64,000 nucleotides of DNA from an uncultured Ignavibacteriota bacterium (GCA_937959065.1 CALGOI010000379.1:2556-66555), one strand, 5' to 3'. Counted from the first letter of the stretch, positions 11,761-29,311 are shown. Notes: generated by a model not told the origin, from the sequence alone. Numbers and translations are program-made.

Positions 11761-12166
11761 ATGAACGAAAGTAGCAATAACAGTTTTTTGTGGGATGGCA
11801 AAAATGACCCGATAGGGGCAACAGTACTAAGCTTGTTTGATGGCATAAGTTGCGGACAACAAGCATTAAAAGAACTTGGAATACCTGTAAAAGAATACTA
11901 TGCAAGTGAGATTGACAAGTATGCAATTAAGGTAACGCAAGAGAACCACCCTAATACAATACAGCTCGGAAGCATCACAGAACTTGAAACAACTAAACTT
12001 CCTAAAATTGATTTGCTTATAGGCGGTAGCCCCTGCCAAAGTTTTAGTGTTGCTGGGGATGGAAGTGGTTTTAATGGTAAAAGTGGTTTGTTTTGGGAAT
12101 ATGTGAGAATATTAAAAGAAACAAAGCCTAAATACTTCTTGCTTGAAAACGTTAAAATGAAAAAGG
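11761..12166 (+). pseudogene. DNA (cytosine-5)-methyltransferase, N-terminal fragment (interrupted by an IS)
   Basis: Motif I (LFDGISCG), motif IV (GGSPCQSFSVAG) and motif VI (LLENVKMKK) are present. The reading frame then runs into IS sequence and stops at 12243. Confidence 0.85.
12159..12166. repeat. Target-site duplication, left copy (GAAAAAGG)
   Basis: An identical 8-mer abuts the other end of the insertion at 15430-15437. Confidence 0.75.
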
Positions 12167-12192
12167 GGCAATCATATAGGTGTTGGGACAGG
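12167..12192. repeat. Left terminal inverted repeat of the IS
   Basis: GGCAATCATATAGGTGTTGGGACAGG aligned against the reverse complement of 15404-15429 (GGTGATTATATATCATTTGGGACACG). Confidence 0.6.
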
Positions 12193-12235
12193 ATTTTACG
12201 CCTGATTTACACACACATCAGCAGAAACGACAAGT

Positions 12236-12367
12236 TCACTTAGGCTTGTCGTCCTTCTTTTTAGCTGAATCTTCATCAGCGTCTTTCAAGGAAGCCTTTA
12301 ACACATCAGAGAACGATGCGTTAACCTTTACTTCTTCTTCCTGATCGGACTTTTTCTCTTTAGACAT
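12236..12367 (-). CDS. Small acidic/lysine-rich ORF (43 aa), speculative
   Basis: MSKEKKSDQEEEVKVNASFSDVLKASLKDADEDSAKKKDDKPK. It is below the ORF-track cutoff and has no recognised domain. Confidence 0.2.
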   Translation of the reverse strand: MSKEKKSDQEEEVKVNASFSDVLKASLKDADEDSAKKKDDKPK

Positions 12368-12433
12368 ATTGCTAAGATACAAAATTGAAAATCGTAGTTT
12401 TACGTTAGTACATACAAACTTGCGTCAGCTTTC

Positions 12434-12554
12434 TTCGCTCTGAAATCTGGTAAATTTCAACTGACACGAAAAGCAAGCTGTGGCACCTCGTCATTACGGG
12501 CGTGGGGCTGCGCTTATTACTTCGTGTCAGGGCTTACCAGAGCCTCAGAGCGAG
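12434..12554. other. Long (~120 nt) three-segment imperfect hairpin inside the IS
   Basis: Pairings are CGCTCTGA (12436-12443) with TCAGAGCG (12545-12552), CTGGTAA (12447-12453) with TTACCAG (12534-12540), and CTGACACGAA (12461-12470) with TTCGTGTCAG (12521-12530). It lies between the divergent small ORF and the lipoprotein gene. Confidence 0.5.
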
Positions 12555-12629
12555 TAGAAGTTGTTGGCTCTGCGCTCGTCCGTTTATAAACCCACCATTA
12601 GGAGCCGGTGGTGCACAATAATCAAGCGT

Positions 12630-13349
12630 ATGAAAAAGTGTAAATTACTTGCTTGGGCAATAACTGGCGTTGTTTTCACTTCTTGCTCAGTCGGAAGCCA
12701 TGTAAGCAATGGGTCTCTTATTCAAAAGAGGAAGTACAACACCGGGTTCGCATCATTCAAATCACACACAGATCGTTCCGGTGAACTTAATCAAACCGCA
12801 TCCATATCGGATGACTATTTTATTGATGCTGTTAGCGATGACAACTATGAGGTTGAGGTTCATGAGGTCATAGAATCTCCTTATTCAACTTACGTGGTGC
12901 CGGAGCAGAATCAGGAAGTTTCTCCTGAGCAGTCTTTCGAATTGCCCATTGCTTCAAAAACGGAAGACGGCATTACAACTACCCTGATTCCACAGGAAAG
13001 ACTAATGGCAAAGGAAGATGGTGGCGGCTCAGGAGCAATGCGAACTATTGGGTGGGTGTTAATCGGTCTTGGATTATTGATACTGCTCTTTCTAAGCATA
13101 CTAATTGGAGCGCTACTTGCTTTGCTTGGTCTTATTTTCGTGTTGGCCGGAGGCGTTGGTGGTAATCAAAAGAAAGAAGATACTGGTGTTTTGCAAGAAG
13201 TGGTGTATTTGAAGAACGGCAGTATTATTCGTGGCACCATCATGGAGCAGGTTCCGGGAGTTTCTCTAAAAATTCAAACGGCAGACGGCAGTGTGTTCGT
13301 GTATAGCATGGATGAGGTTGAGAAGATAACCAAGGAGCCAAAGAAATGA
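12630..13349 (+). CDS. Putative lipoprotein/membrane protein (IS passenger)
   Basis: Taking the ATG at 12630 gives MKKCKLLAWAITGVVFTSCS, a lipobox-like signal. There is a long hydrophobic stretch (IGWVLIGLGLLILLFLSILIGALLALLGLIFVLAGG) and a C-terminal LKNGSIIRGTI...DGSVFVYSMDEVEKI module. Confidence 0.55.
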   Translation: MKKCKLLAWAITGVVFTSCSVGSHVSNGSLIQKRKYNTGFASFKSHTDRSGELNQTASISDDYFIDAVSDDNYEVEVHEVIESPYSTYVVPEQNQEVSPEQSFELPIASKTEDGITTTLIPQERLMAKEDGGGSGAMRTIGWVLIGLGLLILLFLSILIGALLALLGLIFVLAGGVGGNQKKEDTGVLQEVVYLKNGSIIRGTIMEQVPGVSLKIQTADGSVFVYSMDEVEKITKEPKK

Positions 13350-13621
13350 TTTTAACCCTAAACTTTAATAAAAGCATCAGGACATTACAGTCAATCATGA
13401 CCATACCTCATGACTTTTTGAAAATTTCTTGATGTTCTTCTTGATGCTATCAAGAAGTTTCATAACTTTACCGCAAAGAAAACGCCCTCACAAGTTTTGA
13501 CGGACTCAACGAGGGCGGATTCTTTCAGAAGCCTTGAGTGGTAAACCCCTTCCGTTGTAAGGAAGATCGGGTCAATACCACAAAGGGCCTTCTGTTGGCT
13601 AAGTTAACAAAAAGCAACAAC

Positions 13622-14074
13622 ATGGAACAGTCAGTAAAGGTTATTAAACAAGAAATCGAAATCCATAAGGCAGAGATAAGGCGGCACAAGTCGGAAATAG
13701 AAAAGCTTGGGGCGGCACTTCAAATATTGGTTGGGAATGGTGGCTCCGCCACTCACTCTGCTGATAATGAAAAAAAAAAACCCCTACACTTTAACACCCT
13801 TACATTCGCACAGTTGATGCAACACATTTTTTCTGATGATGTAACAAAAACAGGAAGGCAGTTATACGATGAGTTTTTGCTTATCACAGGAAAAACAAAT
13901 TATAAGTATCCAGCATTTTCTGCCCGGCTTTCTGAGAGGGCGGTCGTTAAGCTAATCAGCAGACATGAAGAAAGCGATCGGCCGATTCATCAAAGGTATA
14001 TCTATGGCCTTAAGGAATGGTTTAATAATGACGGATTGAAAGAGGAATACAGAAAAAGAATAAAATTTGAATAA
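13622..14074 (+). CDS. Hypothetical protein (IS passenger) containing an A11 tract
   Basis: 150 aa from the ATG at 13622, with a coiled-coil N-terminus. The ORF track begins at an upstream GTG. Confidence 0.5.
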   Translation: MEQSVKVIKQEIEIHKAEIRRHKSEIEKLGAALQILVGNGGSATHSADNEKKKPLHFNTLTFAQLMQHIFSDDVTKTGRQLYDEFLLITGKTNYKYPAFSARLSERAVVKLISRHEESDRPIHQRYIYGLKEWFNNDGLKEEYRKRIKFE

Positions 14075-14114
14075 TCGCCAATATGAGGCTTGTTCCTATT
14101 ATAATTAATAAAAG

Positions 14115-14131
14115 GGGCCGAAGCCCCTTTA
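14115..14131. terminator. Intrinsic terminator hairpin
   Basis: GGGGC-cgaa-GCCCC followed by TTT, 40 nt after the 13622-14074 stop. Confidence 0.6.
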
Positions 14132-14230
14132 AAATACCCTCTAACGGGGTTTCGCTGAAATAGTGCTGTCTCTTGTAAAGGCTGGCCTCATCTAACCAAA
14201 TCCGCAAGAGTAAACCCGTTAGAACCAAGA

Positions 14231-14253
14231 GGGGGAGTTCGCTCCCCCTTTTT
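14231..14253. terminator. Intrinsic terminator hairpin (bidirectional position)
   Basis: GGGGGAG-ttcg-CTCCCCC followed by TTTTT. It lies between the convergent passenger genes and the transposase stop. Confidence 0.65.
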
Positions 14254-14276
14254 CATGCACCAAAGATACGATAATC

Positions 14277-15191
14277 TTACTTCTGTATCAGATTCTCATA
14301 CTTCAGCCGTCTGCCATCGCTTTGAAAGATTGCTTCTGCAAAGCGTTCTTCCTGAGTATCCTCTTTAGCGTTGTATCGGTAGTTGAACTCGTCCAAGTAC
14401 CGAGATAGATGCTTGTCCGATACATGATGGTAGATTCCTATTATTCCCCGCTTCAATAATGAGAAGTAACCCTCAATAGTATTGGTATAGATCGAACCTC
14501 TCACGTATTCTTCTGCGGAATGATTCACTGAATGGTGTTGGTAGTAACCATTCAGGTTCTTATACATTCCGTTTTCATCAGTTATTACCACAGCCCCAGG
14601 CTTCACGTTCTTTAGCATTACCGGAACCACGTCCTTGGCTTTTCCGCTTTCCACAGCCTTAGATCGCACTTTACCCTCTCGCTGAACAAGGCCAACAACA
14701 GGTGTCTTACTATGCGCGCCTTGTTTGCCAATGCGCTTGCTCTTATGCTTATTGCTCTGTTTGCCGCCCACGTAAGTCTCGTCAATCTCAACTACTCCTT
14801 CCAATGATTGCGGAAGCTTCTCTTTTAGCATTTCCCTTACCCGGTGAAGAACAAACCATGCCGACTTCTGAGTAATACCGAGATCACGGGCTAACTGGCA
14901 GGAACTAATACCCTTCTTGTGGCTCGTAATTAGGTAGATGGCAATAAACCATTTACGAAGTGGTATTTTGGTGTTCTCGAATATGGTGCCCACTGTAACG
15001 CTGAACTTCTTGTGGCACTCCTTATTTGCGCATTTAAACCTCTTACCATTCTCAATCTTATAGACTTTCTTGCTCTTGCAGTATGGGCAGTTGGCCTTAC
15101 CGTTAACCCAACGAAGTTTAGCGAGATAGTCCCGGCAGGTTTGCTCATCCTTAAATGTCTCTGTTAGTTGTATAATGTTCTCGAACTCCAT
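14277..15191 (-). CDS. IS1595-family transposase (zinc-ribbon plus ISXO2-like DDE domain)
   Basis: 304 aa. The N-terminal zinc ribbon is CPYCKSKKVYKIENGKRFKCANKECHKKF, followed by an HTH (ISSCQLARDLGITQKSAWFVLHR) and DDE-region motifs VEIDETYVGG, VVITDENGMY and NTIEGYFSLLKR. Confidence 0.9.
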   Translation of the reverse strand: MEFENIIQLTETFKDEQTCRDYLAKLRWVNGKANCPYCKSKKVYKIENGKRFKCANKECHKKFSVTVGTIFENTKIPLRKWFIAIYLITSHKKGISSCQLARDLGITQKSAWFVLHRVREMLKEKLPQSLEGVVEIDETYVGGKQSNKHKSKRIGKQGAHSKTPVVGLVQREGKVRSKAVESGKAKDVVPVMLKNVKPGAVVITDENGMYKNLNGYYQHHSVNHSAEEYVRGSIYTNTIEGYFSLLKRGIIGIYHHVSDKHLSRYLDEFNYRYNAKEDTQEERFAEAIFQSDGRRLKYENLIQK

Positions 15192-15196
15192 TGTCT

Positions 15197-15331
15197 TTAG
15201 TTGTTGTCGGCTATCTTCTTTAATTGTATTCGGATATAATTACTAAGGCTCCGTTCGTCAGCATTGGCCAGCTTTTGCAACTTATCCTTTAGCTCCTTAC
15301 TGACTCTTATTACTATCGTTTCTTCTTTCAT
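15197..15331 (-). CDS. Ribbon-helix-helix (CopG/Arc-like) small protein upstream of the transposase
   Basis: 44 aa: MKEETIVIRVSKELKDKLQKLANADERSLSNYIRIQLKKIADNN. It shows the beta-strand/helix/helix pattern typical of RHH proteins. Its stop is 5 nt before the transposase ATG. It is not in the ORF track because it is under 60 aa. Confidence 0.5.
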   Translation of the reverse strand: MKEETIVIRVSKELKDKLQKLANADERSLSNYIRIQLKKIADNN

Positions 15332-15403
15332 GGTCACTTGTTATACATTGTATAACGATGTAATACATAAAAGGTTGCCTTAATTGTTGGGTTTTTCACG
15401 GGG

Positions 15404-15429
15404 CGTGTCCCAAATGATATATAATCACC
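15404..15429. repeat. Right terminal inverted repeat of the IS
   Basis: See the left terminal inverted repeat; 18/26 matches by hand alignment. Confidence 0.6.
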
Positions 15430-15437
15430 GAAAAAGG
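15430..15437. repeat. Target-site duplication, right copy (GAAAAAGG)
   Basis: Identical to 12159-12166. Confidence 0.75.
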
Positions 15438-15994
15438 AGTGGGAACAAGTTATTACCGATGCTTTAGGGGTAGAACCTTTTGAAATACCGAGTAATTTGG
15501 TTAGTGCTCAAAATAGAGTAAGACTGTACTGGACTAACTTTCCGCTAACATTGCCGAAAGATAGGGGTATTAGTTTGGGTGATATTATTGAAAAGGATTT
15601 TGTTTTTACAAGCAAGGCGCAAATCATACTTAGTACGATGTATAAAGAGAATGCTAAGAGTATGTTTAAGCGAAATAAAAAAGGCTTACTTGCTTGCTCT
15701 AAACAATGCTCTGAATGCAAGTTTATAAAACCAAAAAGCAACACAGTAAGAACTGGAGGTTTGAAAAGCTACCAACGCCACGAATGGGATTCAGTTTGCA
15801 AATTACACCTTCGCAAATTAACACCTTTGGAATGTGAAAGATTACAGACCTTACCTGATAATTATACGGCTTGCATAAGCAATACGAGACGATACCAAAC
15901 AATAGGAAATGGTTGGACTGTAGAAGTTATTAAGCACATCTTTAATTGCCTGATAAGGCAAGCGAGGGGAGAAAAAACTGTTATTGCGGAATAA
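15438..15994 (+). pseudogene. DNA (cytosine-5)-methyltransferase, C-terminal fragment
   Basis: The frame continues EWEQVITDALGVEP...SAQNRVRLYW (motif VIII)...LTPLECERLQTLPDNYT...TIGNGWTVEVI (motif X). There is no in-frame ATG at its 5' end. Confidence 0.85.
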
Positions 15995-16038: not shown

Positions 16039-16126
16039 AACGGTTTGGCTAAAATGTAGTAGCCGACCAACGAGAATTTGAATTATTAACCTGATGCTGC
16101 AAAGGCTATTCATTTTAGCTTTTGTT
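16039..16126 (+). repeat. AAC...GTT-closed imperfect hairpin (site A2)
   Basis: AAC-GGTTTG-GCTAAAATG (16048-16056) pairs with CATTTTAGC (16111-16119)-TTTT-GTT. The arms are homologous to site A0, with a compensatory change (A0 has GAT/ATC, A2 has GCT/AGC). Confidence 0.6.
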
Positions 16127-16150
16127 GTAGCATCGTAAAGCGAACGGATT

Positions 16151-16426
16151 ATGAACGAAAATGAAAGGATTGGAACATATTGTGAAAAATGTGGAGGGCC
16201 ATTTTGTATTTGCGAAGAAACCGAAGAAATAAAAAGGCAGGCATTAATAGAAATGAAAGATGATTTTAAAAGACAAGCAAATATTTGGAGGGGCAAAGCG
16301 GAAGAAGTGAAAGAATCAAGCAGACATAGATACTACCAGGGCAAAGCAATGGCTTATAAATACACCTACAATGCTTGCATGGAATTATTGTACGGAAAAG
16401 ATTGGAGAAAAACGCAGGAGGGGTAG
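16151..16426 (+). CDS. Hypothetical protein (CxxC...CxC)
   Basis: 91-aa ORF. Its stop lies 16 nt before the inverted-repeat site. Confidence 0.5.
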   Translation: MNENERIGTYCEKCGGPFCICEETEEIKRQALIEMKDDFKRQANIWRGKAEEVKESSRHRYYQGKAMAYKYTYNACMELLYGKDWRKTQEG

Positions 16427-16442
16427 TGAGCGTATGTGCTAC

Positions 16443-16505
16443 AACGATTGTATCAAAACACCCACACTGAAAATCAGAAAGTTATGAATGAATACACAAA
16501 TCAAT
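16443..16505 (+). repeat. Inverted repeat, left copy (IR-L); contains the recombinase start codon
   Basis: 16443-16488 is identical (46/46) to the reverse complement of 22929-22974. The extended alignment gives 60/63. It begins AACGATTG and contains GTTATGAA, with the ATG at 16484. Confidence 0.9.
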
Positions 16506-17368
16506 TCAGGCGATTTCTTTTGGGTAAAAGGTTGGCGCAATCGACAATGAACAGTTACCTAAGCCACTTAGATCACTACTTGCGTTGGTGTTATTCAGAG
16601 GGTGTGCCACCGGAAGATATGCCAACAGAGGCGTTGCTGGAATGGATGAGCCGACCCGGCTCACCAAGCACGGTAAGCCAACGAAGAACAACACTCGTTC
16701 ACTTGTATGAATCGGTGCTTGGCCAAGGCTTTAAGACTCTGCCGTTGCCCTACCCGAAAAAGAATGTTAGATTGCCCCACCACTTAACACCTCAACAGGT
16801 GGCGCGAATCATTCAGTCAGTAACAAACACCAAGCAACGCCTGGTCTTGCAAATAATGTACGCTCTTGCGCTCCGGGTAGAGGAAGCGGTAAGAATAAAG
16901 AGGGAGGATATTTACGAAAACTACGACACCGAAACGGGAGAGATGTACTATGAACTTAGGGTTGTTGGGAAAGGAAACAAGGAAAGGCGTATTCCAATTC
17001 CTGACCAAACGGTTGCAGCCATGTTTTCGCACATCAAATCCAAGCACACAGAAAGCGGCTATTTGTTCAAAGGTCAGTTCAAAGGACATTACAGTTACGG
17101 AAGCATCCGAAATGTATTCAACCGGGCGAAGGAGAAAGCGGAAGTAACTACGCCCGGAAGCACTCACCTACTCCGAAAGAGCAGAATAACCCACCTTGTA
17201 AATGCCCAATTGAACGACAGGACTATTATGCTAATGGTAGGCTGGAAGAACCAAAAGACCATAGAACACTACCACCGTGCTAACACCTCATCAATGAGAA
17301 AAGCAGTATCAATGGTTGACGAATCACTATTGCTAATTGAGAAGACACACCATAAACTTATAGCATGA
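16484..17368 (+). CDS. Tyrosine site-specific recombinase, Xer-like (short, no obvious arm-binding domain)
   Basis: 294 aa from the ATG at 16484. It has an N-terminal SAM-like core-binding region (STMNSYLSHLDHYLRWC) and the catalytic pattern R (LALRVEEAVRIKRED), K (GKGNKERRIPI), HxxR (HLLRKSRITHL) and H/Y (TIEHYHR). Confidence 0.85.
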   Translation: MNEYTNQFRRFLLGKRLAQSTMNSYLSHLDHYLRWCYSEGVPPEDMPTEALLEWMSRPGSPSTVSQRRTTLVHLYESVLGQGFKTLPLPYPKKNVRLPHHLTPQQVARIIQSVTNTKQRLVLQIMYALALRVEEAVRIKREDIYENYDTETGEMYYELRVVGKGNKERRIPIPDQTVAAMFSHIKSKHTESGYLFKGQFKGHYSYGSIRNVFNRAKEKAEVTTPGSTHLLRKSRITHLVNAQLNDRTIMLMVGWKNQKTIEHYHRANTSSMRKAVSMVDESLLLIEKTHHKLIA

Positions 17369-17958
17369 TAATAGGTATATCAGGAAAGATTGGCTCTGGC
17401 AAGGACACCGTGGCCGGTATCATACAAGAACTAACCAATGACCGGTGGGAAGCAAAGAAGTATGCCGACAAGCTGAAGCAGGTGTGCCACATTGTTTGCG
17501 GAGGAGACATAAGAGATCAGTTTTCCCGGGAGGGCAAGGCCATTTACATATCCTCGTTTGGAATGACCATAGGCGAGATACAGCAGTTAGTGGGCACCAA
17601 TGCCATGCGTGACAACTTTGACGAAAACGTGTGGGTTAAAGCATTGATGAATGATTATGTGCCAAGCAAGGGGGGAAATGTTCCCAACTGGATAATAACT
17701 GATGTGCGCTTTCCTAATGAAGCGGCCGTCATAAGGAAAAATGGCGGATACCTATTAAGGCTGGAAGGAGACCCTGTTGACGTTAGAAAGAACTCTGACA
17801 GGGACCTAAGTCATCCTTCTGAAACATCTCTTGATGATTACCGGTATTGGGACGGAATAATATACAATACCGGTAGCATGGACGATCTAAAGAGGTATGT
17901 CGAAAACTTTCTTGTTGATGTCGAGAATCGCTACGACATGAAGTTCAATTGGTTATAG
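17365..17958 (+). CDS. Deoxynucleoside monophosphate kinase-like P-loop protein
   Basis: It has a P-loop (GISGKIGSGKDTVA) and ITDVRFPNEAAVI, as in phage dNMP kinases. Confidence 0.6.
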   Translation: MIIGISGKIGSGKDTVAGIIQELTNDRWEAKKYADKLKQVCHIVCGGDIRDQFSREGKAIYISSFGMTIGEIQQLVGTNAMRDNFDENVWVKALMNDYVPSKGGNVPNWIITDVRFPNEAAVIRKNGGYLLRLEGDPVDVRKNSDRDLSHPSETSLDDYRYWDGIIYNTGSMDDLKRYVENFLVDVENRYDMKFNWL

Positions 17959-18039
17959 CCTGGCTGTATCTCTTGTGGCAAGGCCCTCGTCATATATTGG
18001 CGGGGGTTTTTCGTAAATTGCCGTCTTAAAACACCGAAA

Positions 18040-18519
18040 ATGGATATGAAGATCCCGAAGGTTACATTGAACTCAGTGTTGAAGATGGTTGTAACACTAC
18101 TTGTCACCCTTTCAGCGTTGGCCACGTCTTATATTGCACTGATAGAACCAAGAATAGTGGTGCTGATAGATGAGCGTATTGACTCTCAAAAGGCCCACAA
18201 TGTTGCAAATGGCAACATGAAACTAAGCGAGAAACTATCTACGCTACTGAATGTGGAGCCCGACTTGGTGGCCAATGAGGTATCACAGATGTACTTCTGG
18301 TACAAACAGCGAGTTGTGATGGACGGGAAGCTGAACGATTTTGTCAACTTCTGGGATGAATGGGAATATGTTGGCGTATTAAAGAACAAGATAACCGGTA
18401 AGTTCAGGTACTTTCCTGGAGTGGGGTATGAGAACCATTACCGGGTGTACATGTACAATGATGGATGGGCGTACTATCCTGAAGGAAACGATGACATTTA
18501 CCAGTGGGTGTATCCCTGA
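18040..18519 (+). CDS. Hypothetical membrane-anchored protein
   Basis: 159 aa with an N-terminal hydrophobic segment (VVTLLVTLSALATSYIALI). Confidence 0.5.
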   Translation: MDMKIPKVTLNSVLKMVVTLLVTLSALATSYIALIEPRIVVLIDERIDSQKAHNVANGNMKLSEKLSTLLNVEPDLVANEVSQMYFWYKQRVVMDGKLNDFVNFWDEWEYVGVLKNKITGKFRYFPGVGYENHYRVYMYNDGWAYYPEGNDDIYQWVYP

Positions 18520-18716
18520 CAAATATGAAAATACCAGACCATCATAGGGCGCATGTTGAAGAACTTAAGCGTATTATGATAGAGGATGATCAATACAGGG
18601 ATGTTCCTTACGCAGAACTTTTTCTTCTGGTAAGTTTCTTTGGGGTGTGGCCGGAATACCGGGCAAAGAAAAGGGCCTCGTGGATAGTGGTGCCTTACGG
18701 AATATACCTTAACTAA
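18504..18716 (+). CDS. Hypothetical protein
   Basis: 70-aa ORF overlapping both neighbours. Confidence 0.4.
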   Translation: MGVSLTNMKIPDHHRAHVEELKRIMIEDDQYRDVPYAELFLLVSFFGVWPEYRAKKRASWIVVPYGIYLN

Positions 18717-19246
18717 TGCTGAAGGGTCGGCCGTGTGAAGCTCCGGGATGTTCAAACCCAAGATGGGGAGGAGGTTATTGTGCCCATCATCAAATGCTTA
18801 GGGAAGACAAAGCTCTGCCCACAGGGCTATCAGTGGGAAAACGTCAAATGCGTTCGTTTAAGGGCTTAAGGCCCAAGAAAAGGCTAAATCCCATGTCATC
18901 TAAGCAGAAAGCCCAGGTGAAGGAGAAAAAGGCGGTGTATGAGCTTATGAAGTCAATTCGTAAAATGGTGTGTACAGGATGCGGGAGGATTAGCGATCCG
19001 GAATTACTTCAGCATAGCCACATAATACCCGTGTCTCGCTGGAAAGAGGGAGAGATAATTATAGAGAACATAACGTATCATTGTAGTGATCTGGCCAACG
19101 GCTGCCACTCAAGGTGGGAAACACACAATCCAAACCACACCAAGGGGATGCTTGATTACGACAAGAACATGAAATACATATCAAGTGTGGATGTTGAATA
19201 CTACCACTTGTTGATAAGTAAGCTTCCTTCTAATGAAACATTATAG
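18716..19246 (+). CDS. NinG/Rap-like or HNH-type zinc-finger nuclease candidate
   Basis: CEAPGC...CAHH at the N-terminus, and CTGCGR...QHSHIIPVSRW...NITYHC...NGCHSRWE in the C-terminal half. Confidence 0.4.
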   Translation: MLKGRPCEAPGCSNPRWGGGYCAHHQMLREDKALPTGLSVGKRQMRSFKGLRPKKRLNPMSSKQKAQVKEKKAVYELMKSIRKMVCTGCGRISDPELLQHSHIIPVSRWKEGEIIIENITYHCSDLANGCHSRWETHNPNHTKGMLDYDKNMKYISSVDVEYYHLLISKLPSNETL

Positions 19247-19310
19247 AGGGTTTGTGCGTAATTTGTAGTGTTGTTACTCCGGTCCTTCATGGGCAATGTC
19301 ACAACAAATA

Positions 19311-19343
19311 GAACCGGGGCGTGTGTTGCAACAACCCCGGTTC
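19311..19343. terminator. Bidirectional terminator at the convergence point
   Basis: GAACCGGGG (19311-19319) pairs with CCCCGGTTC (19335-19343). It lies between the convergent genes ending at 19246 (+) and 19349 (-). Confidence 0.7.
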
Positions 19344-19348
19344 TTCCT

Positions 19349-19873
19349 TTACACCCACGGGGCTTTGTTTCGAATAACGTTTTTCTTGTATTTACGGGAT
19401 AAGGACCTGGCAATCCTCTTATACTGATCGGGAGTGGCTGGCCGCCTGTGTAGTTCCTGAGCTTCCCGGTGCAGGTCAACTATATGCTTGTCTGATTTAT
19501 CATGGTAATCGTAATAGAGGATTCCCGCATATTCTGGAACTTCTTCAGGATTAACCATCTCATAAGGCATTACATAGTAGAACTTGGATGGAACGTTGCC
19601 GTCCAAGTAGTGCCTTTCTGTGCCATCCATGACTACCGTGGTGCCGGTGCCGGATAAGTGAAGGTGCTTTTCTTTTTCGAAGTCCTTTTGAAAGTCGGCT
19701 ACCGTGAGCTTTACTTCGAACTCATATATCATCTCAACTGATGAAAGTGAGATGAGGTCTGATTCCCAATTGAACAGGTAAACATTAGGACAGGCTACCT
19801 TGTGTTTTTTGCCTGAGAGGTAGTTGTAAGTCCCACGTATTACATCCGCTTCAGTAATCTTCCCTTGCGCCAT
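19349..19873 (-). CDS. Possible PD-(D/E)xK nuclease (MmcB-like)
   Basis: 174 aa. WESDLISLSSVEMIYEFEVKLTVADFQKDFEKEKH resembles the D...E-x-K core followed by the ADF..D motif. Confidence 0.35.
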   Translation of the reverse strand: MAQGKITEADVIRGTYNYLSGKKHKVACPNVYLFNWESDLISLSSVEMIYEFEVKLTVADFQKDFEKEKHLHLSGTGTTVVMDGTERHYLDGNVPSKFYYVMPYEMVNPEEVPEYAGILYYDYHDKSDKHIVDLHREAQELHRRPATPDQYKRIARSLSRKYKKNVIRNKAPWV

Positions 19874-19892
19874 ATTCGGCTAAAGATACGAA

Positions 19893-20228
19893 TTAGGGTG
19901 TGTTGTTGTTGTTGGGCAGGGCAACTAAGTGCCAAAGACGTATGCCGGGGACGCAGAGAATGATTTGAAGTGCACAATATAGTGAAGCGGCAATTTGCAT
20001 GTGGCCCAGCATTTGGTCTTTACAATTATTAAAGAACCAAATGTTGAGAATAACAAGTGCGGTAGTGGCCGCTAATATTCCGAACACACCCCATAGGCCC
20101 GCCCATCGAAATCTCTTTTCGTATGTCACTTTAGGTTCGTCATCGTAGTGTTTTTCGAACACCATCATTTGATACGGATTTACTATTTGACATCCTGTGT
20201 GGTGCCTTACATAATTACTCTTGTTCAT
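19893..20228 (-). CDS. Hypothetical membrane protein
   Basis: 111 aa with two or three hydrophobic segments. Confidence 0.45.
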   Translation of the reverse strand: MNKSNYVRHHTGCQIVNPYQMMVFEKHYDDEPKVTYEKRFRWAGLWGVFGILAATTALVILNIWFFNNCKDQMLGHMQIAASLYCALQIILCVPGIRLWHLVALPNNNNTP

Positions 20229-20893
20229 ATATAGTTTGGTTTTCCGTTAGTGCTCAATATTTCAAATTCCACTACCCAAACCCATGGGTTGGACTTCCAT
20301 GATTCTGCTCCGTTTATCTCGATCCAAAGGGTTTTGAATGACTCCGTTGGCTCCGAAGTTGCTCCTCCGGTTATGTAATTTCGATATAGTGAGTACGAGT
20401 CTGTGTTGGCTATATAAGCACCAGCTGGCTCTATTCCCTCTTCTATACAATCCCTTGGGGATATGCTTTGCGCCTTTTCAATTAGAACCTTCTTTATCCT
20501 AAGCCATATTCTGGCGACCGGCTTTGGCATGTGTATGGATGGTTTCCATCCTGTTTTTGTACTGAAGCTGGGATCAGGGCCGTAATCAGCCTTGTAAGCC
20601 ACCTCGTAATTGTTTGGGGTGTCTGCAAATGCCCTGTAAAACGATTCCCGAACCCAAAGAAAGTCTCCGGGATTTCCGTATGGGCACTTATGGAAATCAA
20701 CAAGAGTGTCTTTTCTATGATACATTACACCAAACTGTTTTTCCTCGTCCACTTTCTCTCCGGTAGTAACAGCGATGTGCTTGCCTTCCTTGGGCTGAGG
20801 TTTGATGGTTCTTCTGGTCTGTGTTTTCCTGCCGTCAAGTATGGCCCTAACCATACTTGTGGAGAATAGGATTGGTTTCTCTTTTGTCATCAT
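20225..20893 (-). CDS. ASCH-like phage protein
   Basis: The N-terminus PILFSTSMVRAILDGRKTQTRRTIKP is a widespread prophage signature, usually annotated as an ASCH domain. Confidence 0.4.
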   Translation of the reverse strand: MMTKEKPILFSTSMVRAILDGRKTQTRRTIKPQPKEGKHIAVTTGEKVDEEKQFGVMYHRKDTLVDFHKCPYGNPGDFLWVRESFYRAFADTPNNYEVAYKADYGPDPSFSTKTGWKPSIHMPKPVARIWLRIKKVLIEKAQSISPRDCIEEGIEPAGAYIANTDSYSLYRNYITGGATSEPTESFKTLWIEINGAESWKSNPWVWVVEFEILSTNGKPNYI

Positions 20894-21135
20894 GTAAGCT
20901 TTATGTATCCTGATTTAATGGCTTTGAGCACCAATAGGGTGTCGTTGTTCTCATTGAAAATGGCCCTGAGTTTTTCCCGGTAATTGAGAACGGTTTGGTA
21001 AGAGCAGTTATTCCACTCTGCGGCTATGTTCTTGATCGATTCTCCCTTGGCCAACATCATTAGCATTTCTTTAGTTAGGCCGTTGAAGTCAGGGTGGTCG
21101 CTCGGGTCAAGTTCCTTTACTTCAATTTCTATCAT
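20890..21135 (-). CDS. LuxR/GerE-type helix-turn-helix protein
   Basis: LTKEMLMMLAKGESIKNIAAEWNNCSYQTVLNYREKL matches the LuxR C-terminal HTH pattern. Confidence 0.45.
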   Translation of the reverse strand: MIEIEVKELDPSDHPDFNGLTKEMLMMLAKGESIKNIAAEWNNCSYQTVLNYREKLRAIFNENNDTLLVLKAIKSGYIKLT

Positions 21136-21677
21136 ATCGGTTTATTTGAAAGTAAAACATCTCTGTTAATCCCATAGATGCGTGAATCCATGGGTTGTAA
21201 TATATCTATCCACTTGGTTCGAACGATGAGGTTGCCATTCTCATCATGGGTGTATTTGCTCATGGTGTCATGTACCACCCACCAGCCGTTTGCCGGGGGC
21301 ATGTGCGGAGAATAAACGTGTATGGTATCGCCATAATTAAAGGGACCTCCCCATCTTGTGAGGAGATCTCTTGACAGTGCGCACCACCGAAGGCTTCCTT
21401 GCTGTAAAGCCACGGTATCGATATACCCACCGTCTGCTGTGTTTAGTGGAGTACTGTCGCACTGCGCTATGGTTGGGTTGTATTTAGTGAGGGTAACATG
21501 ATGTAGTTCCTGGTGGTAGTGGTGTATTACCGTGTCGTGAACTACAACGCAGGTGTCTTTTTTGGCCAGTAATGCGCTGAGGTTTTGGTTCTGCTCACAC
21601 TGGTGGGTTGCTCCGCATAGCAGGAATATGATTAGACCTATAAGGACGAAGCGGTATGTCTTTTGGGATGAGGTCAT
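21132..21677 (-). CDS. Secreted/anchored 3D-domain (DPBB-fold) protein, putative cell-wall lytic
   Basis: It has an N-terminal hydrophobic anchor. TKYNPTIAQCDSTPLNTADGGYID...GDTIHVY resembles 3D/RlpA-like domains. Confidence 0.4.
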   Translation of the reverse strand: MTSSQKTYRFVLIGLIIFLLCGATHQCEQNQNLSALLAKKDTCVVVHDTVIHHYHQELHHVTLTKYNPTIAQCDSTPLNTADGGYIDTVALQQGSLRWCALSRDLLTRWGGPFNYGDTIHVYSPHMPPANGWWVVHDTMSKYTHDENGNLIVRTKWIDILQPMDSRIYGINRDVLLSNKPI

Positions 21678-21720
21678 TGTTCTGCTTTGGTTATTGTTTC
21701 GGGATCAACCTCTTGGTATT

Positions 21721-21954
21721 TCATTTCTTGGAAATTACTTTTATTGTTACCCTTCCCCCTCCGAAAAGAGGCATTGTGTCTCCGTGTTTGGCTCTAATAG
21801 CGTGTTTATTGTGGTTAATACTACACCATTGGCCAATCTCATTTACCCATCCCACATAGGCATCTGGTCTTTTGTTGGTCAGCCGCATCTTCCTTGCTGT
21901 AACATGATCTCCAGTAGGAGCCAAGACATATCCGGGAGGGGCTTCAGGGGTCAT
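21721..21954 (-). CDS. Hypothetical protein
   Basis: 77-aa ORF. Confidence 0.4.
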   Translation of the reverse strand: MTPEAPPGYVLAPTGDHVTARKMRLTNKRPDAYVGWVNEIGQWCSINHNKHAIRAKHGDTMPLFGGGRVTIKVISKK

Positions 21955-22125
21955 GTTAGTCGTGTTGGTTAATAATCATTAAGTTGATTTCGTTTATTCG
22001 TGCCTCAATATTCTTTTCGATCACAGCGCACCTCATTAGCTGCCCGGGCCGAACATCTTTTTTAATGCCCCGAACACGCTCCAGGCGCTTTGTAAGGCAC
22101 TCTTTCCTATGGATGAGGTATTCGC

Positions 22126-22302
22126 TCACTCCTTGCCCCGTATATAGCCCTTATCTTCTCCTGTATCACGGGCAGCTATCATCTTTTCACGTAGCCTGAT
22201 CTCCTTGTCGAGCAGGCAGCAGGGCCCCACGCCCCGGAAACAATCCTCGGCATAGTGTTCTTTGCCACACCTCCTGCACTTTATCTTAACTTTATACGTC
22301 AT
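22126..22302 (-). CDS. Small Cys-rich hypothetical protein
   Basis: The start was moved to the internal ATG (MTYKVKIKCRRCGKEHYAEDC...) so that it does not overlap the upstream gene, which ends at 22316. Confidence 0.35.
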   Translation of the reverse strand: MTYKVKIKCRRCGKEHYAEDCFRGVGPCCLLDKEIRLREKMIAARDTGEDKGYIRGKE

Positions 22303-22315
22303 TTTTCTTACGTGT

Positions 22316-22696
22316 TCAACAACGATTTTCACTAAACGTACTATACACCACGGCCACCTCTTTTGAGAACGAAATAGCCCCAATTCCAAGCCGTGTGTTT
22401 CTTACGCTTTTAAGGGTGATGTCGGCACCATGCCTGCTCACCACAATGTATTGCTCAGTGCCCACACCACTAATCACTACATCATCGGCCTCAATGTGCC
22501 TTTCTTCCTGCTCTATCTTTCCATGAACAACAAGGTAAACGTTGGTGTCTGTGGATCCCCACAGCCTAAGCCACCAATTGCTTGATGGTTCCTGGTAATA
22601 GCACACTTCTACGGTGCCTATATTGATCTTGGCGGTGTTGCCTCTGGCCAGCGTGTGGCATTCTCCGGGAGTTAGGGGGTAGTCGTAGATGCTCAT
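22316..22696 (-). CDS. Hypothetical protein
   Basis: 126-aa ORF with a 4-nt overlap with the upstream ORF. Confidence 0.45.
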   Translation of the reverse strand: MSIYDYPLTPGECHTLARGNTAKINIGTVEVCYYQEPSSNWWLRLWGSTDTNVYLVVHGKIEQEERHIEADDVVISGVGTEQYIVVSRHGADITLKSVRNTRLGIGAISFSKEVAVVYSTFSENRC

Positions 22697-22887
22697 CGTT
22701 TTGTGGTTATTTTATTAGTAATAGCGAATCCCGCAGCAAACCCCCAGATGCCGAACAACACCGTGGTAAGTATATATCCGGCCACGGTATCGTGCTCTGA
22801 GTTAAAGAATGCCGAGGTTGTCCATGCCCACCCAGTAAGGATAAAGGGCAGGGATGTTATTAGGGTGATCTTGAGTTTTCTGGTCAT
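22693..22887 (-). CDS. Small membrane protein
   Basis: 64 aa with two hydrophobic segments. It is the first gene downstream of IR-R. Confidence 0.45.
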   Translation of the reverse strand: MTRKLKITLITSLPFILTGWAWTTSAFFNSEHDTVAGYILTTVLFGIWGFAAGFAITNKITTKR

Positions 22888-22911
22888 GTTTTAAGGCTTT
22901 AGGTGGTCATT

Positions 22912-22974
22912 ATTAATTTGTGTATTTGTTCATAACTTTCTGATTTTCAGTGTGGGTGTTTTGATACAATCGTT
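22912..22974 (-). repeat. Inverted repeat, right copy (IR-R) with a vestigial 6-codon ORF
   Basis: This is the reverse complement of IR-L, with a perfect core at 22929-22974. On the minus strand it reads ATG AAC AAA TAC ACA AAT TAA (MNKYTN-stop), against MNEYTNQF... for the recombinase. Confidence 0.9.
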
Positions 22975-22983
22975 ATGTGCAAG

Positions 22984-23310
22984 CTAATCTTCGTGCCAAG
23001 CCTTAAATTCCGTTAAAAAAGGTTCGCTTTCTGGTCTGTGTCCATCTGCATAGCTTATATGAGCGTATGTGGTTTCAAAACCATATTGATAAACAGTTTC
23101 GTAGCCAAAAAACTTACAAATCCTATCAGCTTGCTTTTCATAGTCTTTTCGTTTTATGGTTTTGTCATAAAACCCCACCTTTTTTAACTCGTCATAATCG
23201 AAATGTTCCAGCAAGAAATTTTTGAGTAGTTCTAATTTCTCGCCAGCACATAACAATGTATAACCGTCAGGCTTGGTTTCTGCATTTTTGGGAGTTTCTT
23301 GTGTATTCAT
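22984..23310 (-). CDS. Hypothetical protein (array B ORF 9)
   Basis: 108-aa ORF. Its stop TAG lies 9 nt before the AAC of IR-R. Confidence 0.5.
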   Translation of the reverse strand: MNTQETPKNAETKPDGYTLLCAGEKLELLKNFLLEHFDYDELKKVGFYDKTIKRKDYEKQADRICKFFGYETVYQYGFETTYAHISYADGHRPESEPFLTEFKAWHED

Positions 23311-23333: not shown

Positions 23334-23406
23334 AACGTCTAATTCACGCCCGAACGGTTATACTCACCGTTACCATTAATAAAAAAGGGCGACCAATCTG
23401 TACGTT
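23334..23406 (-). repeat. AAC...GTT-closed nested hairpin
   Basis: On the minus strand TAAC spans the stop. The outer pairing is AACGT/ACGTT, with CGCCC/GGGCG inside it and an inner AACGGT/ACCGTT mini-hairpin (23353-23371). Confidence 0.45.
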
Positions 23407-24283
23407 AAAAAACTGCGCATCCAGTACCACATTCTTCTTCCATATCAAACAAATCATTTTCATAAATATATTCATCTGTTGCTCTTGTAAATGGTTGTTC
23501 AGCCATTTTTACTAAATCTTCAATAGTATTGTAACCTCTATAAAATGTTTGCACACCGTTGTTTTTTTTCATTAATTCGTTATAGCTTGGTTTAACTTCA
23601 ATTGGTATTGAGCCATAAGTTTTAATCATTCTATCCCACCAATCAGCTTTATCTGGTTCTTCTTTTAAAATAGTCATTAACTTTCTGTTAGACTTCGCAA
23701 AACACATATCGCAGTTTCCTTTATAAGCTGGAATACTTATTTGTATTGGTTGTTCTTTCCAGAATTTATTTCTATCTCGATTTGAAATACCTCTATCTAA
23801 TAATGGATAAAAAACATTATTGGTTTTATAATCTTTCCTTACACGATCCATTTCATCGGCACGCAAACCAACAGCTATAGAATAATTATTTGTGCTAAAT
23901 ATTGAATCTGCATATTTTCTTAATGGCTCTAATTTCATATCTCTATTACACCATTTATTTTCTTTGTTTGGTATTCCAAACTTTTTTATGCCTGTTTCAA
24001 ATATTTCGCCATTACGCTTTAAGTTTTCGTAAGAAACTATTTTAGGTGTTACACCTGTGCCTTTATCGTGAAATTCTGCTTCAATCCAAATTAAATTAAG
24101 ATTATAGTGTTTATCACATTCATTCATAAACTCTAAAGATTCTTCTCTTTCTTTAGACGTGTTAGCCATAACATTTATAATATTGTGATCTGGAAACCAT
24201 TTAGGAAGCATTATAGCCATCATAACACTACTATAACCAGCAGATACACTACAAAATATATTTTTATTATTCTCTAATTTCAT
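23405..24283 (-). CDS. PAPS-reductase/PP-loop ATP-pyrophosphatase family protein
   Basis: 292 aa. It has an N-terminal PP-loop-like FCSVSAGYSSVMMA and a C-terminal CGTGC cluster. The family call is based on overall pattern only. Confidence 0.55.
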   Translation of the reverse strand: MKLENNKNIFCSVSAGYSSVMMAIMLPKWFPDHNIINVMANTSKEREESLEFMNECDKHYNLNLIWIEAEFHDKGTGVTPKIVSYENLKRNGEIFETGIKKFGIPNKENKWCNRDMKLEPLRKYADSIFSTNNYSIAVGLRADEMDRVRKDYKTNNVFYPLLDRGISNRDRNKFWKEQPIQISIPAYKGNCDMCFAKSNRKLMTILKEEPDKADWWDRMIKTYGSIPIEVKPSYNELMKKNNGVQTFYRGYNTIEDLVKMAEQPFTRATDEYIYENDLFDMEEECGTGCAVF

Positions 24284-24377: not shown

Positions 24378-24379
24378 AG

Positions 24380-24721
24380 CTACAATACCGCTTTTTCGTC
24401 TATTTCATCAGAGTCACACACAGGGCAAGTGCAATCACCATAATCACCAGTATCAGCTATTTGTCCACCGCCATTTAACAGTTTTGAGCTTCCCCACCAA
24501 CCGCACTTGCCACATTCGGCAGTATAGTATCTATTTGCAATATCTTCGGGAGAAGCGGTACAATAGCTAACATTGGCTATACGCAAATTATTTACTAGCT
24601 TATCCAATGTATATTGCATATGTACTTTGCCCCAATCTACTTGACATTCCCCTACTTTTGTCATAGGTTCAATCAGTTGTTTAATCTCTTCTACTGTTTT
24701 AATATCTTCTTTTGTTATCAT
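24380..24721 (-). CDS. Hypothetical zinc-ribbon protein
   Basis: 113 aa with CGKCGWWG...CTCPVC. Confidence 0.5.
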   Translation of the reverse strand: MITKEDIKTVEEIKQLIEPMTKVGECQVDWGKVHMQYTLDKLVNNLRIANVSYCTASPEDIANRYYTAECGKCGWWGSSKLLNGGGQIADTGDYGDCTCPVCDSDEIDEKAVL

Positions 24722-24750
24722 AATTTTAGTTCTTTAAATCCGTAAATAAT

Positions 24751-24772
24751 CAACGCATAGCCTTGTCCGTTG
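24751..24772 (-). repeat. Mini hairpin CAACG-12 nt-CGTTG
   Basis: The loop contains GGCTATGC, as does the neighbouring site at 24334-24377. Confidence 0.35.
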
Positions 24773-26150: not shown

Positions 26151-26295
26151 ATAGGGCATTTAAAAAACCCATAAAGCAAACACCAGCAACAAAAGTGTTA
26201 AACATTGCCACTTTATATTTCTTCTTACTATACATCCAAGCTGCACACACTAAGTTAAGTGCAGTTAATAAAATTTGTATCACTATTGTTTCCAT
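26149..26295 (-). CDS. Small two-segment membrane peptide (48 aa), speculative
   Basis: METIVIQILLTALNLVCAAWMYSKKKYKVAMFNTFVAGVCFMGFLNAL. It is below the ORF-track cutoff. Confidence 0.3.
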   Translation of the reverse strand: METIVIQILLTALNLVCAAWMYSKKKYKVAMFNTFVAGVCFMGFLNAL

Positions 26296-26311
26296 AATAA
26301 AAACGCCCTAT

Positions 26312-26435
26312 AACAAAATGTATAGCAAATAGCCGTTATTGAGCTGGTAATCAAACTATTTGCGTGTTTATAAATATTATCTATAATTCATCATTTGTGG
26401 TTATCTATCGGCTACATTGCCATACATAAACCGTT
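26312..26435 (-). repeat. AAC...GTT-closed long imperfect hairpin
   Basis: On the minus strand, ACCCAAC-GGTTTATGTATGGCAAT pairs with ATTTGCTATACATTTT-GTT. This gives ATGTAT/ATACAT and GCAA/TTGC plus G-T pairs. The 7-mer ACCCAAC fits RYYYAAC. Confidence 0.45.
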
Positions 26436-26445
26436 GGGTGTAATG

Positions 26446-26775
26446 CTAAACCCCCGCAAGTTCATATCTACCATTATCACCGTGAGCAAGTAAGTAATAG
26501 TTTTCGAACCATTCGAGGCTACTTTCTAACGCTATATATGTTCTATCCCCACCGTGCCAAACTCGGTAATAGTGGTGTTCAAAATGAATCCAAATCTTAT
26601 CACGGTCTTTTATGTTCGGTTCTACCCAGTATTTGCCTTCTTGAATCCAACCCTTACCTTGTAGGTATTCAGGCGTGAGTTGGTTAAGACCGTGAACAAT
26701 TCTGTTAGCAATCAACTTAACTGCTAATTTGTAAATGCATTGTTTAGCACTGAGCCATTTAATTAAGTTTTTCAT
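26446..26775 (-). CDS. Hypothetical protein
   Basis: 109 aa from the ATG at 26775. Confidence 0.45.
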   Translation of the reverse strand: MKNLIKWLSAKQCIYKLAVKLIANRIVHGLNQLTPEYLQGKGWIQEGKYWVEPNIKDRDKIWIHFEHHYYRVWHGGDRTYIALESSLEWFENYYLLAHGDNGRYELAGV

Positions 26776-26872
26776 TTCAATTCGATTAAGCACTACGCCC
26801 AACAATTGCTATAAAACATAGGGCGTTCGTGCGGTTATTAAAGTGTAGGGTTCTTATCATGTTGTTGGTTTC

Positions 26873-26904
26873 AACGATATGTTCGGCTATCTATGCCCTG
26901 CGTT
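26873..26904 (-). repeat. Weak AACG...CGTT hairpin immediately after a stop codon
   Basis: The minus strand reads TGA-AACGCAGGGCATAGATAGCCGAACATATCGTT, with only a 4-bp base plus GGC/GCC. Confidence 0.25.
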
Positions 26905-27072
26905 TCATAGCATAGCCGTTGTGTGCCATTTATTTTTCTTTGCCAGCTTCATTGTGCCTGTTATCACCTTGTTTAAGGTGGTTGAGGGGCAGCCTATTTC
27001 CTTTTCGATGAAATTAACAGACAATCTATATCTGTTGCTTTTCAGCCATTCGGTTAGTTCTTGGTTATTCAT
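26905..27072 (-). CDS. Small HTH-like protein (array B ORF 1)
   Basis: 55 aa from the internal ATG. LSVNFIEKEIGCPSTTLNKVITG is XRE-like. Confidence 0.35.
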   Translation of the reverse strand: MNNQELTEWLKSNRYRLSVNFIEKEIGCPSTTLNKVITGTMKLAKKNKWHTTAML

Positions 27073-29205: not shown

Positions 29206-29311
29206 TGGCAAGGACAGGACTCGAACCTGCAGATACCGTTTTACATTCATCGCCTACGATAAACACGGTTATCTCTTTTCAGAAGCAAATGCCTAATTTT
29301 GCTACCCTGCC
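29206..29311 (-). ncRNA. tRNA-like element with a non-canonical middle (not a confident tRNA)
   Basis: On the minus strand the acceptor pairs GGCAGGG with CCTTGCC (one G-U). The D-arm is GCAA-AATTAGGCAT-TTGC and the T-arm is GCAGG-TTCGAGT-CCTGT. However, 52 nt lie between the D- and T-arms with no 5-7-5 anticodon arm. Instead there is a 3-bp stem around a CTGAAAA loop and a 9-bp stem, AGAT(A)ACCGT/ACGGTATCT. Confidence 0.4.

Follow-up and report, generated by a model that had tools for sequence, protein, structure and literature searches.

We describe here a 64,000-nucleotide stretch of DNA from an uncultured Ignavibacteriota bacterium (GCA_937959065.1 CALGOI010000379.1:2556-66555; the whole stretch is called the window below), which is the sequence of an uncultured tailed phage with ~45% G+C and which contains a 6.5-kb segment bracketed by a long pair of inverted repeats, IR-L and IR-R, with the gene of a Xer-like tyrosine recombinase starting inside the left one. 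The reading that we put forward, tentatively and without quite regarding it as probable, is that the two arms are recombination sites of a family of phage tyrosine invertases and that the 6.5-kb module can invert. The repeat itself is neither a chance nor an assembly feature, and it is tied mechanistically to the recombinase. Three of the marks by which an inverton may be recognized are found here: a segment bracketed by inverted repeats (a 63-nt pair with a 46-nt exact core), an intact site-specific recombinase gene in or beside the segment, and a recombinase family tied to repeat-flanked segments elsewhere (8/8 relatives vs 2/125 controls). The original prediction, which had been made from the sequence alone, left a choice between a recombinase-driven invertible module, the footprint of a past inversion between two att-like sites, and a duplicated leader or promoter shared by two operons. 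A site linked to the recombinase is now supported by the element that this gene possesses, by the repeats of relatives and by an exchange between the arms, but both orientations have not been found.

In a repeat search of the window, the arms 16443-16505 (IR-L, plus strand) and 22912-22974 (IR-R, minus strand) are complementary at 60/63 positions (95%), are separated by 6406 nt, and form by far the longest repeat of either kind. The segment 16443-16488 is the exact reverse complement of 22929-22974, and the remainder of IR-L (16489-16505) matches at 14/17 positions; this agrees with the earlier description of a 46-bp perfect repeat with likeness reaching 16505 and 22912, all coordinates of which were correct. 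The 46-mer 16443-16488 occurs exactly twice in the window, once per strand, while no match with three or fewer mismatches arose in any of 100 shuffles, and a search of IMG/VR for the repeat gave no match. The outer edge of IR-L coincides with the AAC(GA) core of an element conserved upstream of the recombinase genes of this family, and the arm runs from there to codon 7 of the recombinase, including its ATG at 16484, which stands only 57 nt after the upstream stop codon. IR-R is an inverted copy of the same element: it has the same leader and an ATG at 22933, followed by MNKYTN and a stop at 22913 (stub 22913-22933, minus strand), and it leads into the minus-strand open reading frames (ORFs) from 22887 to 19349, just as had been reported. 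The three mismatches between the arms (22928, 22927 and 22915) are clustered in this non-coding stub.

The recombinase (294 aa, 16484-17368, plus strand) lies inside the bracketed segment and had been predicted as apparently intact, with its ATG in IR-L. This prediction holds, as the protein matches PF00589 with E = 1.5e-24, and the catalytic R, K, HxxR and Y are all present in the alignment, with Trp at the position of the second His, giving the C-terminal catalytic domain R-K-H-R-(H/W)-Y of the tyrosine recombinase superfamily. The enzyme is thus a tyrosine recombinase and not a serine recombinase of the Gin/Hin type. Its best PDB matches are XerA (4a8e, 3e-18) and XerD (1a0p, 1.5e-15), and Cre is not among the seven PDB matches. 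The protein stays under the NCBIfam equivalog cut-offs of XerA (109 vs 220 bits), XerD (102 vs 330) and XerC (85 vs 335), and it falls outside the integron integrases (TIGR02249, 74.6 bits vs a cut-off of 265). Only 11 homologues were found in a large protein collection, the best of which, besides the window's own protein, is 39% identical (range 35-39%), and IMG/VR contains no close relative of the recombinase.

In all homologues, the ATG is preceded by the box (A)TTrCAyAT-AACGAkTGTATAGAGGAAT, ~12 variable nucleotides and then ATCAATAA, as obtained by comparing the homologue contigs L001-L005 and L023-L027. Between phages, nucleotide homology starts 9-11 nt before the AACGA core and stops at the stop codon of the recombinase, while the intergenic DNA flanking the element is otherwise unrelated, so that the site and the gene make up a single module. 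In each relative, the right half of the element occurs at the recombinase gene alone (24-32 bits vs at most 12 for the next match), and the possibility that it is a dispersed promoter was rejected because a position weight matrix found no second copy in the relatives. Likewise, a second full copy of the site was absent within 10 kb in the relatives and from a 55.6-kb IMG/VR contig. The family consensus reaches 9 nt outside the core, and here the two arms of the window differ: the outer flank of IR-R, cTTGCACAT, agrees with ATTrCAyAT in 5/6 conserved columns (p ~0.005), that of IR-L in 3/6. The complete ancestral element is thus at IR-R, while the coding sequence continues from IR-L, which would fit one earlier arm-to-arm exchange; this sign of a past flank exchange between IR-L and IR-R is only suggestive.

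The strongest argument that the AAC-core region is the recombination site of the family comes from eight relatives whose upstream DNA is unrelated (L001, L002, L004, L023, L024, L026, L027 and L029). The 50 nt before the core were compared with the upstream sequence for inverted partners, with 200 shuffles as reference, and a significant partner was found 75-970 nt upstream in 8/8 relatives, with scores of 12-26.5 that were reached by 0-2/200 shuffles; at control positions of the same loci, 2/125 scored 12 or more and none 20 or more. The arms are AAAAAATAATGTTTAAAAAATA...CGGCTAAC in L001 (9237-9258/9927-9948), AGCAyTGCATATAAC in L002 (9662-9676/9948-9962), AAAAAATAAAAAAGAAGAAAACGAAA in L004 (6585-6610/7427-7452), AAAAATTAAGTTTATAAATAATTTAAyTG in L023 (642-670/943-971), GCAAyTACACATAAC in L026 (624-638/1295-1309) and GGCAAyTACTGATAAC in L029 (1763-1778/2747-2762), and inverted repeats upstream of the recombinase gene are also located at 318-329 in L027 and 3451-3465 in L024. 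Their sequences differ from phage to phage and match within each phage. In L001, L002, L026 and L029, arm identity stops exactly at AAC, the next base being G in the proximal and A in the distal arm, and in L002, L023, L026 and L029 the single mismatch has a constant position, with ATT in the proximal arm where the distal arm has ACT.

Between these repeats lie 0.1-1 kb of DNA with one, two or three small genes, or else with the body of a single gene. The gene in L026 is Mom-like, and inversion would truncate it at residue 38; in L002, inversion would join codons 1-19 in frame to an antisense ORF of 94 codons. Judged by sequence, the repeats of the relatives have the appearance of a phage inverton family. 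L025, a Logan contig that carries the L026 recombinase, has its position 1 at L026 1300, one base past the T/C mismatch of the L026 repeat, where a branch point would be expected in the assembly graph if both orientations co-exist in SRR11341812; the predicted inverted junction of this relative in SRR11341812 is GCAACTACACATAACGATGGTATAG. A long-range RNA stem was also considered as the meaning of the relatives' repeats, as the mismatch becomes a G-U wobble on the sense strand in 4/4 phages. In the relatives such a stem may exist; for the window pair it is ruled out, since both arms are transcribed as the same, and not as complementary, sequence.

Interaction between the two arms could be followed in three sibling assemblies (ERZ869936, ERZ869940 and ERZ869942), which contain the same phage at 99.5-100% identity with coverage of 3-4x, so that their contigs represent the majority state. 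One sibling contig (L022) begins in IR-R with a 55-mer, the last k-mer common to both arms, which is identical to IR-L 16451-16505, and then enters the interior of IR-R. At 22928, 22927 and 22915 it has the bases of IR-L, and over 2987 nt it shows only one further difference; in that population all 63 nt of the two arms thus agree, and the IR-L bases inside IR-R mean that sequence has been transferred between the arms by recombination or conversion. In another sibling contig (L013), 13 clustered differences from window 20068-20136, 12 of them to A in L013, break a 111-aa ORF. A diversity-generating retroelement was rejected for this cluster because the window is without a template repeat, and the cluster, at 4x coverage, is probably due to read error or low-quality reads.

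The rightward genes of the phage extend from ~34 kb round to 19.2 kb and the leftward ones from 33.9 to 19.3 kb, so that the bracketed segment straddles the meeting point of both transcription arms at ~19.2-19.3 kb. Downstream of the recombinase, the rest of the rightward operon (17365-19246, plus strand) consists of a dNMP kinase gene (17365-17958), an ORF (18040-18519) and a Cys-rich ORF with a weak HNH match (18716-19246). The leftward operon (19349-22887, minus strand) has ~10 small ORFs, the first of which starts 26 nt after the IR-R stub, and includes a phrog_2776 gene (19349-19873), a phrog_874 gene (20225-20893) and the gene of an 81-aa LuxR/GerE-type helix-turn-helix protein (20890-21135); the 64-aa gene after IR-R shows no homology with the 64-aa genes after the relatives' recombinases. 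A hairpin with a 10-bp stem is located between the operons (19310-19344; -20.6 kcal/mol on the plus and -22.8 kcal/mol on the minus strand). The operons had been predicted to meet at a bidirectional terminator. The hairpin is indeed at the point of convergence, and its role as a terminator is putative, since with a long loop and without a clean T run it was not picked up by a consensus terminator scan. Outside the repeats, a 91-aa gene (16151-16426, plus strand) ends 17 nt short of IR-L and a 108-aa gene (22984-23310, minus strand) ends 9 nt from IR-R. A composite transposon with target duplication was rejected, because the flanks do not form direct repeats and the segment carries ordinary phage genes of the same G+C.

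In the mechanism that we propose, the recombinase would bind the shared 46-bp arms in inverted orientation, and strand exchange, presumably at or beside the AAC core, would flip the 6.5-kb segment. No gene would be broken, since the operons converge on the hairpin and each junction falls in a short space that separates genes of the same direction. What would change is the incoming transcription arm, which the recombinase operon and the leftward operon of 10 genes would swap, with possible effects on regulation, and one orientation would dominate in the sampled populations. As geometry, the earlier statement that inversion keeps all genes whole and swaps the upstream transcription arms is correct. 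The predicted junctions of the large inversion are GTAGTGAGCGTATGTGCTAC + 46-mer + CAAATACACAAATTAATAATGACC and GAAGATTAGCTTGCACAT + 46-mer + TGAATACACAAATCAATTCAGGCG.

The left half of the conserved element, together with its core, resembles a motif dispersed over the intergenic DNA of the early region, ATTGyAyAT-AACGR, which often has a hairpin after it. TAACGRTT occurs 12 times in the window vs 4.1 expected and AACGG-N3-7-GCTA 8 times vs 1.5 expected; most AACGG-GCTA copies and several TAACGRTT copies are intergenic and co-oriented with the genes at 11-27 kb. The junction at 25139 (minus strand) matches the outer flank and core of IR-R in 19/22 columns. Sibling assemblies (99.5-100% identical) are without window 24378-24766 (a 113-aa ORF) and 26151-26430 (a 48-aa membrane peptide), and both of these single-gene cassette deletions join exactly within AACGG (2/2 indels). 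Repeated intergenic motifs at the borders of genes, with indels joining inside the motif, are what is expected of PeSL-like cassettes, which these loci would appear to be. A ~150-nt intergenic element with the AACGG motif, a hairpin and a promoter-like end was also found, at 26280-26460 and 26760-26935 (minus strand) in the window and at 7440-7620 and 8285-8465 in an otherwise barely related IMG/VR phage (L006), with 78-83% nucleotide identity; it has no Rfam match at the gathering threshold and may be either a mobile regulatory cassette or an undescribed RNA.

Several observations weigh against an invertible 6.5-kb module. Contigs spanning IR-L (L012/L015 and L017) and IR-R (L013) are all in the window's orientation, and no contig with an inverted junction was found in the three sibling assemblies at their 3-4x coverage, where look-ups via the outer-flank genes, the inner genes and the homologue genes gave contigs of the parental junctions or of the interior; with a single orientation in every junction-spanning contig, a free 50:50 flip is unlikely. 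The transfer seen in L022 is most simply explained as gene conversion by homologous recombination and not by the tyrosine recombinase, since a single crossover inside the core cannot yield it. The cargo of the segment is ordinary early genes and not the tail-fibre or specificity genes that are typical of switches. A dyad-symmetric arm-spacer-arm of the dif/lox type (11-13-bp arms, 6-8-bp spacer) was not found in the 46-bp core: the five best dyads per arm (7-8 of 11) all lie at the ATG or 3' of it and not in the conserved upstream element, nor do the upstream elements of the family have a dyad in common. L004 and L029, furthermore, have near-identical recombinases (DNA 99.8%) and entirely different repeat sequences, so that the repeats themselves are not the recognition sequence. 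Finally, the two sites of each relative share the side of the core distal to the recombinase, while the arms of the window share the side facing the recombinase. Should strand exchange require the distal side to be identical, IR-L (TGCTACAAC) would not be compatible with IR-R (GCACATAAC), and each would pair with a 9-bp partner of its own.

Such partners exist. A candidate site S1, TGCTACAAC (16124-16132, minus strand), is the exact inverted copy of 16437-16445, which is composed of the 6 nt before IR-L plus AAC, and the two bracket the 91-aa gene; a candidate site S4, GCACATAAC (23246-23254, plus strand), is the exact inverted copy of 22972-22980, the 6 nt before IR-R plus AAC. It is a doubtful, though real, possibility that one recombinase serves these two small switches, around the 91-aa gene and in the 108-aa gene. 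The 46-bp identity would then reflect the need of both proximal sites for the same recombinase-binding arm, the 6.5-kb inversion would not be a programmed reaction, and IR-R would be the orphan left when a second recombinase module lost its gene beyond codon 7, to which the MNKYTN-stop stub is well suited. The relatives, too, speak for this arrangement, as their segment is always short and upstream, with identity on the left side up to AAC; the window's exact 9-mers, whose partners are located 304 nt (IR-L) and 265 nt (IR-R) upstream, likewise end at AAC, and the next base is A in both partners, as in the distal arms of L001, L002, L026 and L029. Inversion between 22972-22980 and S4 would cut the 108-aa gene short at codon 23, which, like the arrangement in L026, is an ON/OFF design. 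The 9-mers are, however, not significant on score alone (p ~0.4), although their position fits the pattern of the relatives; every sibling contig is colinear with the window in these two small segments, and there is no sign that heterology on the left side blocks recombination between IR-L and IR-R.

A rather unlikely alternative is that a regulatory leader was duplicated, in the PeSL style, when recombination took place at repeated junction motifs, and that the repeat is the result. Homologous or microhomology recombination would then shuffle single-gene cassettes and would once have copied the leader of the recombinase in front of the leftward operon, where the copy would act, if at all, as a shared promoter, operator or translation-start region, and inversion would be sporadic and due to homologous recombination. 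The over-representation of TAACGRTT and AACGG-N3-7-GCTA, the match of the 25139 junction and the two indels joining in AACGG all accord with this, as do the arm conversion in L022, which is typical of homologous recombination, the RusA-like resolvase encoded by the phage and the PeSL precedent (PMC2839356, PMC4122927). It leaves unexplained, though, why among at least 13 junction motifs it was the recombinase's own junction that was copied, and why repeats are found at that gene in 8/8 relatives. In addition, neither arm has a match to a sigma-70-type or Bacteroidota-type promoter, the upstream element gave no consensus RNA structure, with single-sequence folds no better than those of shuffles, and the 57-nt gap between stop and ATG is short for a promoter plus leader. 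We consider an inert fossil of a past inversion, or of mosaic recombination between two phages, which would persist because it is young or homogenised by conversion, very unlikely. The full family-type element at IR-R with the coding sequence at IR-L is what one flank exchange would leave, the three mismatches cluster in the non-coding stub and a single orientation is seen; but the identity of the arms begins precisely at the conserved core and is unbroken for 46 bp, a sibling population shows the arms still interacting, and conservative site-specific inversion creates no duplication. The least credible, to which we give almost no weight, is an ordinary attP-integrase module of a temperate phage, with IR-L as the attachment site and IR-R as a secondary att-like copy. 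The site does adjoin a tyrosine recombinase gene that is labelled integrase in PHROGs, and in metagenome contigs that look bacterial (L007, L008 and L010) 21-22 nt of the arm are matched upstream of uvrA. The 21-mer AACGATTGTATCAAAACACCC is exact at L007 2646-2666, L008 13393-13413, L010 1285-1305 and L011 1647-1667, which are unrelated metagenome contigs, but in L011 it lies inside an unrelated coding sequence (ERLYQNT), so that chance matches of this length do occur; an attB at these matches was rejected as unsupported, with no tRNA or Rfam feature at either site, and they are probably chance matches and not attB. Moreover, no attL/attR junction was found, no arm-binding domain was matched in the 294-aa recombinase, and a collection with one genome for each of 185,579 bacterial and archaeal species contains no member of the family, which argues against a plain prophage integrase.

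A wider proposal, which we regard as a long shot, is that the family consists of undescribed phage Xer-like tyrosine invertases acting at AAC-core sites, with at least one inverton beside each recombinase gene and with three roles in this phage. If true, these roles would be two small gene switches, the operon-swapping inversion of 6.5 kb and single-gene early cassettes bounded by AACGG. This would amount to a shufflon- or integron-like system by which a phage reversibly re-wires and re-stocks its early genes.

The phage encodes DnaB, GroEL- and GroES-like proteins, a large terminase, a portal protein, a dNMP kinase and a RusA-like resolvase. Its terminase shares ~30% identity with terminases of Flavobacterium and Cellulophaga podophages, a hint at a host in Bacteroidota, and a search of INPHARED for close phages gave no match. 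The chaperonin genes code for a full-length GroEL-like protein (phrog_5725, 3.4e-150) and a protein with a Cpn10/GroES domain (loci 9647-11260 and 34415-35095). A C5 cytosine methyltransferase gene is split into an N-terminal part (11761-12243, profile 2-127) and a C-terminal part (15497-15994, profile 205-322) by a 3.2-kb insertion (12244-15496), in which an IS1595-family transposase (14277-15191, minus strand; NF033547, 1.3e-64) is accompanied by two unknown ORFs; in the relative L001 the parts adjoin each other. A PAPS-reductase-like gene (23405-24283, minus strand) has 73-82% amino acid identity with genes of otherwise unrelated IMG/VR phages, and in the window the arms of a 23-nt inverted repeat stand on either side of it (23369-23391/24314-24336, 91% complementary); an attempt to find synteny through this gene failed, as the coding sequence alone is common to those phages. 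At 29206-29311 (minus strand, 106 nt), a tRNA match in Rfam (31.4 bits vs a gathering threshold of 29), where ARAGORN finds none, may represent an intron-containing or degenerate tRNA. Collagen-like 9-nt (Gly-X-Y) repeats are present at 47344-47526 within a structural-gene ORF (47236-48339). A 34-nt direct repeat, AAAGTGTTATCAAAATAATATATTTTTTGTTGCG (2017-2050/33975-34008, 74% identical), is found upstream of two rightward genes, with one copy at the divergence point of both transcription arms, and is likely a promoter region.

Tyrosine-recombinase invertons are well known in bacteria, while the phage inversion systems known to us so far, Mu Gin and P1 Cin, use serine invertases and switch tail fibres. 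Should the inversion be confirmed, the present system would be a phage-borne tyrosine invertase. It would give reversible and heritable on/off control of phage early genes, of which one in a relative is Mom-like, and in this phage it would make the transcriptional context of two whole operons exchangeable. Such recombinases are routinely annotated as "integrase" and taken as a marker of lysogeny, a view that would be wrong for this recombinase family. The recombinase with its 46-bp site would also be a candidate for a new orthogonal recombination tool. Surveys of invertons in viral genomes are only beginning (PMC13501310).

Several known systems can be compared with the segment and its recombinase. 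With Mu G/Gin, P1 C/Cin, e14 Pin and Salmonella Hin it shares the kb-scale segment, whose inversion is a prediction here, the recombinase gene at or inside one end, and genes that are whole in both orientations; those systems, however, have serine invertases, an enhancer with Fis and swapped C-termini of tail fibres, whereas the window encodes a Xer-like tyrosine recombinase, with no exchange of coding sequence. P1 Cre-loxP is similar in its small and simple tyrosine recombinase, in Trp at the position of the second His and in a site directly upstream of the gene, and two inverted lox sites would give inversion. The 13-8-13 dyad is absent here, though, the sequence is nearest to XerA and XerD, and the resemblance of ATAACGATTGTAT to the lox arm ATAACTTCGTATA is anecdotal. 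The T4-type PeSL cassettes (PMC2839356, PMC4122927) also have a repeated intergenic motif, often a stem-loop, at the borders of small early genes, and indels between near-identical genomes that join inside the motif, but they belong to another phage lineage with another motif, and the 46-63-nt pair of the window is far longer than the other copies of its motif and is tied to a recombinase. Integrons (IntI, attI, attC) resemble this locus in having a tyrosine recombinase with a strong site beside its gene, weaker sites (here with the AAC core) at the borders of single-gene cassettes and presence/absence joints at the core; they differ in the integrase score (74.6 vs 265 bits), in that hairpin-type sites like the R''/R' of attC are not established here, and in that the cassettes here are co-directional with the recombinase gene. 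In comparison with the fim switch of E. coli (FimB/FimE), the Tsr invertible promoters of Bacteroides and the RecV switches of C. difficile, the system of the window is phage-encoded, its 6.5-kb segment carries the recombinase and two whole operons in place of a promoter or specificity gene as the switched element, and one orientation is seen; but it has in common with them a tyrosine recombinase gene in or beside a segment with short inverted repeats, outside of which the sequences are not identical, and in the relatives an ON/OFF geometry in which inversion would truncate the upstream gene.

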